A stretch of DNA of 25,752 nt from a virus (lineage: Duplodnaviria; Caudoviricetes). The stretch is from positions 1 through 25,752 of IMG/VR virus record IMGVR_UViG_3300037461_000219; one strand, written 5' to 3'. Of this stretch, positions 2,190 through 11,645 are shown piece after piece (the stretch's first letter is position 1; each line of letters starts with the position of its first letter). Below the pieces are notes generated by a model, which was not told the DNA's origin, ran no database searches, and was given only the letters and a program-made list of their open reading frames with translations. A program made the translations under genes and the position numbers.

Positions 2190-4208
2190 CTACACTAATT
2201 CCCCACCATCAGTTATTGACCAACTATTTGGAGCACCCGTTAATATCGCTCTGGCAGCTTTGCCACCGCCTGCATCCGAATACTTTGCAGTACCGAAATT
2301 GGGGGCAAGACCCGAATTGACTATTTGTGCCGCCCATGCTATAAGAGTAGCATCATAATTTGTTGTACCTGTTGAGTTAATGTTCGTTAGTCCAGCAATC
2401 TGTGTCATAGTCGTAACCGCCCCAATATTAAATCCCGCCAATGATTGCTTAAATGCGGAGCAAGTTCTTATCATATAGGTCATATTCGTAACCTTTGCCG
2501 TGTTGAAATTTAGCGGTTGATTAAATACCACACATTTATTTAGCATATACTGCATATCTGTAACCTCAGCGGTAGTAAAATTGAGCTCTTGGTTAAAGGC
2601 ATTGCACTCGTAAAACATATATGCCATAGTTGTTACCTTCGCCGTATCAAATGGCACCGGCTTATTAAATACAAAACAATTAGCAAACATATATGCCATA
2701 GTTGTTACCTTCGCCGTATCAAAATTGACTGCGCCATTAAATAATGAGCAATTATGAAACATTTCAGACATCGTGGTTACTGCTGAAGTGTCTGGGGTAT
2801 CGGTATAATTACCCGTCAGATTGGCACAGCCATAAAATGCCTTATTCATCTGTCTCCAGACACCAGATCCCCATTGTTCAACGGTAAGTATCTTTAACTT
2901 GTCTGCCGCATTAGCGAAAAATATCTGAGGGAATGTTCCCCATACACACACTTTTTTTACTCCCGTTGTTGCGTACTCATGTGCAATTTGCGTCACCGTT
3001 GTTAACGTACCCCCTATAAATGTCTCGGCTATACCATCTCCCCAATCAATAATGCAATCATAACCCGTTGAATAAGTTGGTATGTTTATTGTTTTGGTTG
3101 CCGACCCCGCATTTTCTGTTTCCCATGTAGTTATAAATGCTTCGGATAGATATTCATTTATTTTTAATGCAAGACCATCGGCAACCTGTACCCGCCCCGA
3201 TGCGTCAAAATGTAATGCATTAGTATGAACACCATCAGTTTTAGGATAGCCCTCATCTCTATCAAGCATAATTGCCTCATAACTACAATCAACTCTTGCG
3301 TTATAAACACCATTGGCAAACGTATCGGCAAGTCCCTTTTGAAGTTTATGGATAGCCTCCAAATACATATCTTGCGAATAAAGGCTCTCATCATAATCGT
3401 GATCCCAACCAGCACCGCTGTTCTCTGTCGTTGTTGGTAATGATACGATAATTTTTAAAGTATTATTATAAGCAATAAAACCATCTATTAGTGTTTTAGC
3501 ATCGTCAAGTATTGTCGTTAATTCCGCATCGGAAAAACCATCACCCGATAATTGGCAATGAGTGAATACATCATTTAGCCCTAATCTTATATCAATGAAG
3601 TTAGGGACTGCAATTGAATTGTCGGTGAAGTATGCGGCAATATCAAGAACCCCATCTTTAAAAAAGGGGCTCGGATATCCAGGCGCATCCGTGTTACGGG
3701 CAAACATTTTATACTGATAACCAGCATACCCTTCGTGTTTTCTTGTTGTTCCTTGAGTACCTAAATGAGTAATGGTACAGCTATCTAAAATAGTTTCAAG
3801 TTCAGTCCCTATTTCCTCACCATAAATTGTGCTATCGCCTATCCTTAATATACTAAAATTAGCAGCATATTTGGGATATACAGTTAAGGCTATTGTTTTA
3901 TCTTCGATAGTATAACTTCCATTTTTAAACACAGCCCTTAATGAATGATCCCCAATGTCTCCCGCATCAGGGGTGATGACAAGATTATTCCCAATCTGAG
4001 TACCAATGTCGCAAGTGTAAGTAACAACAAGCGGATTACCAATAGGTACATTGATAAGAGCATCACCGTATATAGTGACCTCCTGCCCGACCATTAAACT
4101 TACCCCAGCAGCCGGTAAAGCAAAGTAAGCATTTCGTGTCGCCCAGTAAGAACTCCAGTCAACGCCTCCCCCGCGGAACATCGGGCTTATGCCTAATCCA
4201 ATTTTCAT
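2190..4208 (-). CDS. Putative virion appendage protein: SGNH/GDSL hydrolase plus DUF285/BspA-like repeats
   Basis: SGNH blocks IGDS, HEGYAG, LGLND, NALHF. IDWGDG (PKD-like) and VEQWG precede 24-aa repeats such as FDTAKVTTMAYMFxxCxxFN. Confidence 0.8.
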   Translation of the reverse strand: MKIGLGISPMFRGGGVDWSSYWATRNAYFALPAAGVSLMVGQEVTIYGDALINVPIGNPLVVTYTCDIGTQIGNNLVITPDAGDIGDHSLRAVFKNGSYTIEDKTIALTVYPKYAANFSILRIGDSTIYGEEIGTELETILDSCTITHLGTQGTTRKHEGYAGYQYKMFARNTDAPGYPSPFFKDGVLDIAAYFTDNSIAVPNFIDIRLGLNDVFTHCQLSGDGFSDAELTTILDDAKTLIDGFIAYNNTLKIIVSLPTTTENSGAGWDHDYDESLYSQDMYLEAIHKLQKGLADTFANGVYNARVDCSYEAIMLDRDEGYPKTDGVHTNALHFDASGRVQVADGLALKINEYLSEAFITTWETENAGSATKTINIPTYSTGYDCIIDWGDGIAETFIGGTLTTVTQIAHEYATTGVKKVCVWGTFPQIFFANAADKLKILTVEQWGSGVWRQMNKAFYGCANLTGNYTDTPDTSAVTTMSEMFHNCSLFNGAVNFDTAKVTTMAYMFANCFVFNKPVPFDTAKVTTMAYMFYECNAFNQELNFTTAEVTDMQYMLNKCVVFNQPLNFNTAKVTNMTYMIRTCSAFKQSLAGFNIGAVTTMTQIAGLTNINSTGTTNYDATLIAWAAQIVNSGLAPNFGTAKYSDAGGGKAARAILTGAPNSWSITDGGELV
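2613..2723. repeat. Two identical 39-nt direct repeats, 72-nt spacing (coding repeat)
   Basis: aaacatatatgccatagttgttaccttcgccgtatcaaa at 2613-2651 and 2685-2723. Encodes FDTAKVTTMAYMF twice. Confidence 0.9.
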
Positions 4209-8769: not shown

Positions 8770-9852
8770 TTACTTTTTGGGATTGTTAAGTGGTTTCCCT
8801 AACAGGAAATTACCGTCGAGAGCTTTGATCTCTTCAGCGAAGGGGACACTTACATTTTCAATGTCATCATCCTCGCCTCCGGCTTTTCCTTTGGGCTTTG
8901 TACTCTGAGATGTTGCTTTTGCCAGTGCTGTCCGGGCTTCGGCCAGTTCAGCGGTCAGGCGTTCAACATCAGAGTTGCGGGCCGTGAGTTCTTCCCGCAG
9001 TGCCGTGACAACTGCCTCCGGCTGTGCTTCTGCTGCTGCCTCCTGCACGTCCTCGACGGCCTCAACAACTGCTTCTGCTGTCTCACTTGTAACTTCGGCT
9101 GCGGCCTCAGTCACTGGTTCTGCTGCTGCGTCCTCGACCTCGGCAGCCACATCGCCACCCTCGGCAGCAACGGTTTCGTTTTCTTCTCCTTTCAGAAAAT
9201 CAACGATCTTTTCAAAGAAATTCTTGTCTTTCATATATTTATCCTGAATTTGCGGTAACTTAAACTTTTCAAATGCTTCAATATCTCCACGAGCCAGCGC
9301 AACGGCTTTTGAAGGCTCAATTATTTCATCAATCAGCCCGGCTTCCTTTGCTTCTTCGGCATCAATCCACTTGCCGTAACCGTTGTTTTCATCCATCAAT
9401 GACCGGACCTTTGCTTCGTCTGCACCTCTTTTGATGTAGATATCCGTTAACCGGGCATCAACTTTCTTCAGGTCATCAACTGCGGCCTCAATGTCATTGA
9501 CATTTCCCATTGCAATATTCGAAGCATGATGAATAAGGTAAAGTGCATTGGATGACATCTGCCGTTTTGTGCCGCTTTGCGCAATAAGAGTTGCAGCAGA
9601 AGCAGTAAGACTAAATACACGAGTAATGATCTCACCTTTAAACATAGAAAGTGCATCATGAATCATGAGCCCGTCTGAAACATAACCGCCAAGGCTATTG
9701 ATGTTTATCGTTATTTTCTTGACTTTTGAGTTGACCAGGTCGGCCAACTGCTTTCTGACAGCAGGCCACGTTGCCGAATCGTCCCAGCCAATCGTGCCGG
9801 AAATTTCAATCTCGGCTTCGCTTTCGCTTTTGTTCGTTATCGTAAATTGCAT
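8770..9852 (-). CDS. clpP: ClpP-type (S14) prohead protease with acidic Ala/Glu-rich and coiled-coil scaffold C-terminus
   Basis: ISGTIGW, INSLGGYV, TASAATLI (Ser), YLIHHAS (His), WIDAEEAKEAGLID. Confidence 0.92.
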   Translation of the reverse strand: MQFTITNKSESEAEIEISGTIGWDDSATWPAVRKQLADLVNSKVKKITININSLGGYVSDGLMIHDALSMFKGEIITRVFSLTASAATLIAQSGTKRQMSSNALYLIHHASNIAMGNVNDIEAAVDDLKKVDARLTDIYIKRGADEAKVRSLMDENNGYGKWIDAEEAKEAGLIDEIIEPSKAVALARGDIEAFEKFKLPQIQDKYMKDKNFFEKIVDFLKGEENETVAAEGGDVAAEVEDAAAEPVTEAAAEVTSETAEAVVEAVEDVQEAAAEAQPEAVVTALREELTARNSDVERLTAELAEARTALAKATSQSTKPKGKAGGEDDDIENVSVPFAEEIKALDGNFLLGKPLNNPKK

Positions 9853-9869
9853 AACTCTGACCTTTTCGC

Positions 9870-9877
9870 CAAAATTA
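9870..9877 (-). promoter_or_regulatory. -7 promoter element (TAATTTTG) of the clpP-capsid operon
   Basis: TAnnTTTG 17 nt upstream of the clpP ATG and downstream of a terminator. Confidence 0.65.
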
Positions 9878-9916
9878 CGCCCGTTGTATTAAATAATCAG
9901 ATAAATATTTTACATG

Positions 9917-9940
9917 AAAAAAGCCCGGATTTCTCCGAGC
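9917..9940 (-). terminator. Intrinsic terminator closing the RAMP/array cassette
   Basis: Minus strand GCTCGGA-GAAA-TCCGGGC (one G-U pair, GNRA loop) followed by T6. Confidence 0.85.
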
Positions 9941-9950
9941 TTCTTCCTTT

Positions 9951-10229
9951 AACTTACCATACCGCGCCAAAACTCACCTAGCCCAACCCCGCCATGCCGT
10001 ACCCCGTCTCTCCATACCTTAACTGCCTCACCTTACCATACCTGACCGCACCAAACCTAAACCTACCCCAACTGGCCAAACCAAACCGTATCACACCCCA
10101 CCTTACCTGCCATGCCAAGCCTCATCATACCACGCCCAACCAAGCCGTACCAGACCCCACCTTACCGCAACTGCCTTAACATACCAAACCATAACTAACC
10201 CCTCCAATCCAACCCTCTCCGCACCTGCC
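9951..10229 (-). ncRNA. Putative guide-RNA array of alternating GGY/NN motifs, four units (VIPR-like RNA)
   Basis: Strict 5-nt period: all 49 spacer triplets begin with G and 35 are GGY. The 52 variable dinucleotides fall in units headed by GGCAG(G/T)T at 10223-10229, 10169-10175, 10105-10111 and 10021-10027. Starts 4 nt after a stop codon and ends before a terminator. Confidence 0.85.
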
Positions 10230-10233
10230 GGTT

Positions 10234-10686
10234 TTATATCGCATCAATAGCCTGATTGATATGTTCGAGAACCTTGTTAAACTGTTTGTAAAGTTTCAGC
10301 TTGTTTTTCAGGGTATTCAGTTGTTGAATGATCCCGGCCTTAATGTACTCAATGTTATCATAGGTGAAGGTATCAATACTCTGATACCCCTCCTTTCGGC
10401 TTATCACTTCATACACATCAACCTCGCGGGCCTCACCGTCAGAGATAACCGACACCTGAATATTGTTCAGAAGGCTCCGGGCTTGTTGTATTCTCCATAA
10501 CTGCCCCGCCCGTGTGTCATCCCACTCAAAGAATTTATGAAGGACAGACCCTTCATCCTCTGCCGCCTTAACGACAAGATCAGGAGTGATAGAACCATAC
10601 AAATTCTGTATGCGTGTCAATTCCGCAACGGCATCTTCAGGATTAATCCCCTTTGCCAGTCCTTTCATTTTCCAATTGTAGCTCAT
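10234..10686 (-). CDS. Accessory protein of the RAMP/array cassette (150 aa, helical, unknown function)
   Basis: Start 10686 overlaps the RAMP stop (TAATG). Motif ITPDLVVKAA..EGSVLHKFFEWDD..AGQLWRIQQARSLL. Confidence 0.8.
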   Translation of the reverse strand: MSYNWKMKGLAKGINPEDAVAELTRIQNLYGSITPDLVVKAAEDEGSVLHKFFEWDDTRAGQLWRIQQARSLLNNIQVSVISDGEAREVDVYEVISRKEGYQSIDTFTYDNIEYIKAGIIQQLNTLKNKLKLYKQFNKVLEHINQAIDAI

Positions 10687-11279
10687 TATTTTTCCTCCGC
10701 TAATTTGAAACGACCATAATTGAACTTTGTTTTTTCGGGCCTCATTTCGCCAATGCCGCACCCATAACCAGCAGCCTTAACGAGCTGGTAAATCTGATCC
10801 AGGCTGACAACTCCGGAGTTAAACTCCACAGTAAGAATAGCAGACCACTCAGGATATTCCGGCCTGTAACGTATGTCAGCAGAGCCCATACCAACCCGTA
10901 CCATGTCGGTACGCATACGGCAATCACCGAAAATTCTGACAAGCTGTGTTTCTTCGCAGTCAGCCTTAATAAAAAACGATGTTTGCGTGTCTTTCATAAC
11001 CATGCCAATCATCTTTGCGCCCCGAATTAGCGCGGCCTTGAAGCCAGCAGCAGGGAAGCCGTCCCATCCTTCGGGCGACTTGTGTTTTGCCTGTTCATAG
11101 TCTTCTTCCGGCACTCGAATGTCGTGCTTTTTGTTCTTCGCCTTACCGGCCTGTTTGTCGGCCATCTCTCTTTTTACCTTCTCGCTCCACTTGTGAACAA
11201 TAAGAGGAGAAACACCACTAATCGGAATCTGAACCTCACGGATTGCAAACTCCATCACTTCAACTTTACTCGTACTCAT
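10686..11279 (-). CDS. Cas7/RAMP-like RNA-binding protein (Vipr-like)
   Basis: RAMP-style motif order: first strand ISGVSPLIVH, FPAAGFKAALIRGA (cf. Csm3/Cas7 IPGSSLKGALR), RYRPEYPEWSAILTVEF, and a C-terminal Gly-rich loop AGYGCGIGEMRP...YGRF. Adjacent to the repeat array. Confidence 0.78.
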   Translation of the reverse strand: MSTSKVEVMEFAIREVQIPISGVSPLIVHKWSEKVKREMADKQAGKAKNKKHDIRVPEEDYEQAKHKSPEGWDGFPAAGFKAALIRGAKMIGMVMKDTQTSFFIKADCEETQLVRIFGDCRMRTDMVRVGMGSADIRYRPEYPEWSAILTVEFNSGVVSLDQIYQLVKAAGYGCGIGEMRPEKTKFNYGRFKLAEEK

Positions 11280-11299
11280 AATAATTTGTTTTAATTTTA

Positions 11300-11374
11300 A
11301 AGGCCCCGATTGTACGAGAATCGGAGCCTTCAGGTTATAACCTTAAATTTCTTTTTGCATTCTCGTACAATGCA
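11300..11374 (-). promoter_or_regulatory. Structured 5' leader: two hairpins with complementary 7-nt loops and a 12-bp palindrome
   Basis: Hairpin at 11356-11374 (loop GTACGAG on the transcript), hairpin at 11300-11330 (loop CTCGTAC), and AGGTTATAACCT at 11332-11343. Confidence 0.7.
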
Positions 11375-11377
11375 CCT

Positions 11378-11385
11378 CAAAGATA
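11378..11385 (-). promoter_or_regulatory. -7 promoter element (TATCTTTG) of the RAMP cassette
   Basis: TAnnTTTG immediately upstream of the first leader hairpin. Confidence 0.7.
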
Positions 11386-11399
11386 ATCCAATATTTTAA

Positions 11400-11645
11400 T
11401 TAAACAACTTTTTTACACAAATATTTTTTCACTGTATCCGGCGAAACGCAAAACTCATCAGCAATGCGATCCTTTGTATGGTCTTTCATGCCTCTTTCCG
11501 GCTGTGCCTTTTCGTATTCGGCAACAATCAGAAACCTCCGGGCAGAATGCTCTGTAATCAATCCAACGGAAAATAGTTGAAAAATGACCTCCTTTGGAGC
11601 AACATCTTTCATCCGTTCGGCAGTCTCTTTTTTAATGTCAATCAT
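11400..11645 (-). CDS. Small HTH-containing protein
   Basis: C-terminal KDRIADEFCVSPDTVKKYL is helix-turn-helix-like. ATGA overlap with the tape measure gene. Confidence 0.65.
   Translation of the reverse strand: MIDIKKETAERMKDVAPKEVIFQLFSVGLITEHSARRFLIVAEYEKAQPERGMKDHTKDRIADEFCVSPDTVKKYLCKKVV

Follow-up and report, generated by a model that had tools for sequence, protein, structure and literature searches.

Locus organization and cassette insertion

The window, i.e., the whole stretch of DNA analyzed here (25,752 nt of the Caudoviricetes record IMGVR_UViG_3300037461_000219), has its main genes all encoded on the minus strand. A ClpP-type head maturation protease of 360 aa (clpP, 8770..9852 (-)) was recognized by both Pfam (CLP_protease, 1.8e-29) and PHROG (head maturation protease, 4e-45), and is the first gene of a head module that continues with a probable capsid gene of 449 aa and the portal gene. 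Between clpP and an 81-aa gene (11645-11400 (-)) lies a cassette (9906..11408 (-)) comprising, in order, a vipr gene, a partner gene, a 5-nt periodic array of four staggered GGY/NN units, and a terminator.

The cassette was absent from some relatives. Contigs from the public runs X6 and X10 displayed a joint from 9905 to 11409 that skips 1503 nt, in agreement with the cassette-less relative L001, in which the 81-aa gene runs straight into clpP; the 1.5-kb cassette is thus a polymorphic insertion. A more distant relative harbored a different AT-rich stretch of 540 nt at the clpP-upstream junction (L002:9458-10000), which makes an insertion hotspot possible at this site.

A motif at 9870..9877 (-), also found in L001, resembles a Bacteroidota-type -7 promoter element and is presumably that of the head operon, and a second promoter-like -7 motif is present at 11378..11385 (-), upstream of vipr and within the cassette. 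A sigma-70 scan gave no site at clpP and an Rfam search gave no match. The two genomes matched by the vipr product were both Bacteroidota MAG contigs, from which a Bacteroidota host is inferred. Elsewhere in the window, 72-nt tandem repeats (2469-2780) within the gene of a DUF285 protein (2190-4208) possibly form a variable region.

Vipr and its partner protein

VIPR systems, first reported in 2026, combine a Vipr protein, a vap gene and GGY/NN vrRNAs with 9-16 pentamers per guide, including staggered arrays (Fig. S18 in 10.64898/2026.04.26.720920). Vipr polymerizes on the RNA with one protomer per pentamer, and the NN dinucleotides pair with a target of which every third base is skipped (10.64898/2026.04.26.720920; 10.64898/2026.04.26.720927). 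VIPR represses the transcription of competing elements, and no self matches of at least 80% were reported (10.64898/2026.04.26.720920).

The first gene of the cassette (10686..11279 (-)) encodes a RAMP/Cas7-like RNA-binding protein of 197 aa whose sole significant PDB sequence match was the SUSP1 Vipr 36pp (E-value 4.5e-4 with the single sequence, 2e-7 with a profile). The top Foldseek matches of its AF2 model (pLDDT 77.5) were Csm RAMP chains (best E-value 5.2e-4). The vap-like partner gene (10234..10686 (-), 150 aa from its ATG, phrog_15946, unknown function) was located downstream of vipr throughout L005-L027, cut loci aside, and relatives among viral contigs were alike in both partner gene and staggered arrays. 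Pfam assigned neither cassette protein to a family, PHROG placed them in families of unknown function only, and their Atlas clusters were unnamed; neither protein displayed a nuclease family (GIY-YIG, HNH) by Pfam or PHROG, and no CRISPR-like repeats were found at the locus. Judged from its sequence, the assembly of 197-aa gene, partner and array is a VIPR system: it encompasses a RAMP-fold Vipr, an accessory gene without a CRISPR array, GGY/NN pentamers, a wobble skip and staggered units.

Guide array and terminator

The array was parsed into four units of 10, 12, 16 and 14 pentamers, of which 4, 10, 13 and 10, respectively, were canonical GGY: the degenerate U1 (10176..10225 (-)), U2 (10112..10171 (-)), U3 (10028..10107 (-)) and U4 (9954..10023 (-)), the last of which spells clpP codons 16-27. 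Each unit was preceded by GGCA, and the G that follows opens the next pentamer, giving a 1-nt overlap as in staggered VIPR arrays; these GGCA|G junctions (10229, 10175, 10111 and 10027) were likewise present in related loci. A terminator-like hairpin closes the array (9916..9947 (-); -20.8 kcal/mol, z -4.7, none of 200 shuffles equally stable), and the arrays of L006, L007, L008 and L010 end with the same hairpin.

Parts of guides were shared among loci. In runs X2 and X6, the six 3' units of U3 recurred behind different 5' parts. A run of dinucleotides within U2 (10112-10171) was common to guides at L006:2233, L010:3799 and L016:1880, and the L010 guide joined parts of two L006-type guides; from this common module and joined guide, guides appear to recombine as modules. 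Neither a significant self match in the window nor a convincing target in the related loci examined was found for U1-U3.

More cassette versions appeared at the clpP-upstream site. The dominant X2 allele (record 10, depth 86) was 164 nt long versus 103 in the region of the last guide (window:9926-10030), probably owing to an extra or replaced unit, and X1, X6 and X11 displayed a different hairpin at 9922-9926. Related cassettes in two groups of loci (L006:2096-2468, L007, L008 and L010; L016, L017 and L019) also end upstream of an apparent head module, there made of two small genes followed by a scaffold-like gene; the guides of these loci showed no match above chance to their neighbor genes.

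Match of U4 to the adjoining clpP gene

Read with one base skipped between dinucleotides, U4 matched its own clpP over codons 16-29 (EISGTIGWDDSATW, 9767..9807 (-)) at 20/28 nt and 8/14 dinucleotides, five of them consecutive, exactly as the initial annotation had read off the sequence. The one-base skip was the best in the masked window (20/28, against 17, 19 and 18 for skips of 0, 2 and 3), and two of the mismatches have the right geometry for the G-U wobbles that had been suggested. The presumed -7 motif of the head operon (9877-9870) lies 63-103 nt upstream of this near-target, close to the 60-100 nt first proposed.

The score alone had been called moderate, and our estimate came near to that one: scores of at least 20 were reached by 100/2000 dinucleotide-order shuffles and 67/2000 base shuffles, and with four guides tested the self score of U4 is not significant alone. 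Codon phase, put forward as extra support, did not provide it. As many as 659/1500 shuffled guides were also best in the sense phase, and dinucleotides of the clade track codon positions 1-2 in general (rho of 0.89, versus at most 0.27 in the five other phases, over 50 internal guides among the 72 unique guides of the clade), so that phase is not independent evidence. When the low-entropy first and last dinucleotides were trimmed, a post hoc choice, the self score was 19/24, a value reached by 9/1500 shuffles. Self scored 19/24 too when the last two units of U4 were left out, or 21/24 counting wobbles.

Among the guide rows tested against their own neighbors, U4 had the lowest p (0.017). Related loci contributed 99 further guide rows, some of them from part-parsed arrays; five had p<0.06 for a self-neighbor match, which is what chance predicts, and no general rule placing guides beside their targets was found in this clade.

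Searches for the target of U4 were made with the whole guide and with parts of it. The full 14-dinucleotide pattern gave no exact match in viral contigs; 11-unit patterns gave none in metagenomes and genomes, and no genome (0/401) held U4 within three mismatches. The first ten units had four matches in metagenomes, none of them in ClpP. The first eight were found at 16 loci in viral contigs, including the homologous site of one distant ClpP (L034, 19/28), which was not counted as support because the pattern had been chosen for that motif. The middle eight matched 38 loci in IMG/VR, none of them ClpP, and 26/38 belonged to one unrelated gene family, out of phase and at 22-25/28; with these unrelated copies used as a chance ceiling, database-wide chance exceeds the self score. 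A search of viral contigs for further arrays whose guides resemble U4 or the INSLGG version found none.

It could accordingly be asked whether the clpP match is fortuitous, the actual target of U4 lying elsewhere, for instance in a phage portal gene (GWYDFAIK) or in one resembling a methyltransferase (GTIGWYDF). The 3-5% of shuffles that reach 20/28 are compatible with such a coincidence, as are the last eight units, whose exact, in-phase matches to two portal-like genes (L050 and L052, 18/28) made up 2/9 of the loci found, and L071, which matched the middle eight. The portal-like and methyltransferase-like sites nevertheless total only 18-19/28, the two best ClpP scores belong to the closest kin, and clpP is also spelled by two independent sister guides, one of them in the register of U4 (see below). 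We hold a chance match to be highly improbable, and it is the sister guides that largely refute it.

ClpP alleles of close relatives

Among 221 ClpP proteins scored against U4, for which scores are protein-level ceilings, only P0181 (22) and P0003 (21) can exceed the 20/28 of self, and both fall within the 90% cluster of the window ClpP. P0181 is 93% identical to the window ClpP and harbored NIDGTIGW at residues 16-23, which fits the first eight dinucleotides of U4 exactly, against two mismatched codons in self. Both self mismatches would be fixed by chance with a probability of about 0.026, and the full first-eight motif was found only in P0181. The ceiling of this allele (22/28, 79%) is below the published 80% cut, and amounts to up to 21/24 without the tail of U4. 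Against the natural-target threshold of at least 80% of NN positions, the best allele thus stands at a protein ceiling of 22/28, and the sister fragments described below at 6/6 units at the protein level.

Across 17 close relatives, the protease domain varied most at residues 15-35 (identity of 0.61-0.74, versus 0.84-1.0 at residues 50-203), and this variable N-terminus may be a loose loop. The clpP of L001, the sole cassette-less relative scored at the DNA level, reached 14/28, below self. A ClpP search of short fragments yielded one protein and no better allele.

Sister versions of the last guide

Public runs were compared as contigs, those labelled as RNA being probably DNA. X6 record 21 aligned to 9983-10057 (U3-U4) with nine differences and then continued with six pentamers in register, which decode to D/E, D/E, G, A, T and W/C. 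This is the sequence of residues 24-29 in the allele P0002/P0175/P0178/P0179, present in 4/221 proteins (chance of at most 3e-6). X2 record 12 aligned to 9893-9963 (the clpP upstream region, the hairpin and the last two pentamers of U4) with eight differences, and its six upstream pentamers decode to I/M, K/N, S, L, G and G, i.e., INSLGG, the catalytic-serine motif at ClpP residues 51-56, present in 56/221 proteins (for any ClpP hexamer, a chance of at most 0.0016). In the window, the corresponding codons (9685..9702 (-)) match this X2 version of the last guide at 10/12 and differ at the Ser codon, whose class is TC in the guide versus AG in the window. Both sister guides are 30-letter contig ends decoded by hand, each from a single contig (depth 5.6 and 31) and unphased with clpP, and 5/7 array-like fragments failed to decode to ClpP. 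As X2 record 12 keeps the last two pentamers of U4, these two units are suggested to be a tail, probably one common to the last guides.

The U4 stretch also appeared, without listed differences, on a contig of a second study (X6 record 18). X6 thus holds the U4 of the window along with its self clpP allele (record 14), and X2 holds the window allele (record 6). Nothing from run X12 aligned to the locus, and this run carries no weight.

The initial annotation had taken the true target to be the clpP of a competitor. A better-matching allele (P0181, at most 22/28) and sister guides that spell clpP speak for this view and point to clpP as the genuine target family, and no allele fits 14/14. The same data bear on the idea that U4 is a decayed or recombined relic of a clpP-targeting guide with no effective target left. 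No allele exceeded 22/28 among the 221 ClpP proteins, the 3' half of U4 (Y, F/L, I/M, K/N) fits no close allele, and guides of the clade are mosaics of common modules, all of which would be expected of a relic. Decay is harder to reconcile with the second-study contig carrying the U4 stretch without listed differences, and with the first eight units still fitting a living allele exactly in a thin sampling of alleles. On balance, we consider a relic unlikely.

Proposed mode of action

U4 likely directs Vipr to silence the clpP gene, and the head operon, of co-infecting close relatives, and the allele of the window itself probably binds too poorly to be affected. Transcription of the array would be followed by cleavage at the GGCA|G junctions. 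Vipr loaded with U4 would then bind the clpP of a relative by gapped pairing, about 60-100 nt below the presumed promoter motif of the head operon, blocking transcription of clpP and probably of the head genes behind it. Such a target would be encountered in co-infection or superinfection, and the self clpP would be spared through five mismatches in 24.

Some binding of U4 to the self clpP may nonetheless occur, given its 19/24 (21/24 with wobbles). A partial binding just below the promoter could dampen expression of the head genes, in which case U4 would be autoregulatory. This would agree with the score of self and its position 63-103 nt below the promoter-like motif, and with the co-occurrence in X6 of the window's U4 and the self allele (records 18 and 14). 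It agrees less well with the better fit of a kin allele than of self to U4, and with the Ser codon class of the X2 sister guide, which differs from that of the window allele also found in X2 (record 6; unphased). The published search without self matches of at least 80% (10.64898/2026.04.26.720920) argues against it as well, as do published self scores below rival scores in a later report (10.64898/2026.10.15.759431). Autoregulation seems to us more doubtful still than a relic, and silencing of relatives is retained as the preferred reading.

Comparison with known systems

The locus shares with published VIPR a Vipr homolog, a downstream accessory gene, 10-16 GGY/NN pentamers, 1-nt-overlap junctions, the wobble-aligned skip, its location in a phage and the anti-competitor reading. 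The skip-one rule aligned to the wobble base, correctly deduced in the initial annotation, is already the published VIPR code (10.64898/2026.04.26.720920) and hence not new; since the VIPR papers establish the 1-nt skip, the wobble alignment and the repression of competitors, the mechanism it had proposed was already known. Published VIPR systems target satellites, the regulators of resident prophages, viral sequences and other VIPR loci (10.64898/2026.04.26.720920), whereas the target proposed here is an allele of the adjoining essential gene in near-identical phages, and units of the window lack the individual pseudoknot tail. Guides against alleles of an adjoining essential gene were not described in the available text of the VIPR papers (including 10.64898/2026.10.21.760802), target tables aside. 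At this locus an already described system takes on a new arrangement, in which a guide is linked to the mismatched allele of its own target.

The solo and VIPR-targeting vrRNAs from SUSP1-family phages are alike in that guides are directed at relatives, with self matches lower than rival matches, and in their wobble-aligned targets at conserved, catalytic codons (10.64898/2026.10.15.759431). Their targets are vipr genes, vrRNAs, a satellite recombinase and REP decoys, whereas the window harbors a complete system facing a linked head gene; the available text of this report makes no mention of clp, protease, allele or superinfection. Guides at L005:4281, L008:6803 and L008:7016 had their best matches in or beside vap of other VIPR loci (19/24 in L017-L020 and 21/28 at L027:850), and are possibly anti-VIPR guides. 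Class 1 CRISPR RAMPs (Csm3/Cas7) have a similar effector fold, but the window lacks CRISPR repeats and cas genes and its guide is non-contiguous.

The free-standing homing endonucleases of T4 (SegF/gene 56, SegG/gene 32 and MobE/nrdB; marker exclusion) offer another parallel, as an intergenic insertion attacks a relative's copy of a conserved neighbor gene; there a protein nuclease itself selects and cuts the DNA, and repair then spreads the element (PMC2988022), whereas recognition in the window is by RNA. With neither cassette protein showing a nuclease family, exclusion by the window cassette would take place by silencing. Tentatively, and with the odds rather against it, the cassette might be an RNA-guided selfish element settled at the head-operon promoter, silencing where homing endonucleases cut. 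It would travel with the clpP allele that its last guide misses and swap that guide to track rivals, so that both win mixed infections, driving diversification of the ClpP N-terminus.

The locus provides a natural, allele-resolved series of guides and targets, with the last guide in three versions, no fewer than six clpP alleles in close kin, and phages that either carry or lack the cassette. It allows a direct measure of the tolerance of VIPR to mismatches and G-U pairs (mismatch, wobble and seed are not mentioned in the available text of the structure paper, 10.64898/2026.04.26.720927), and lets one ask how guides are newly written and whether near-identical phages exclude one another through VIPR. 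Vipr and partner each matched 33 phage records from identical genera: in these 33 cultured records of Mycobacterium and Gordonia phages (H1-H30), a "hypothetical" Vipr homolog with 38-42% identity lies beside a partner homolog, making these phages tractable models for this branch of VIPR.
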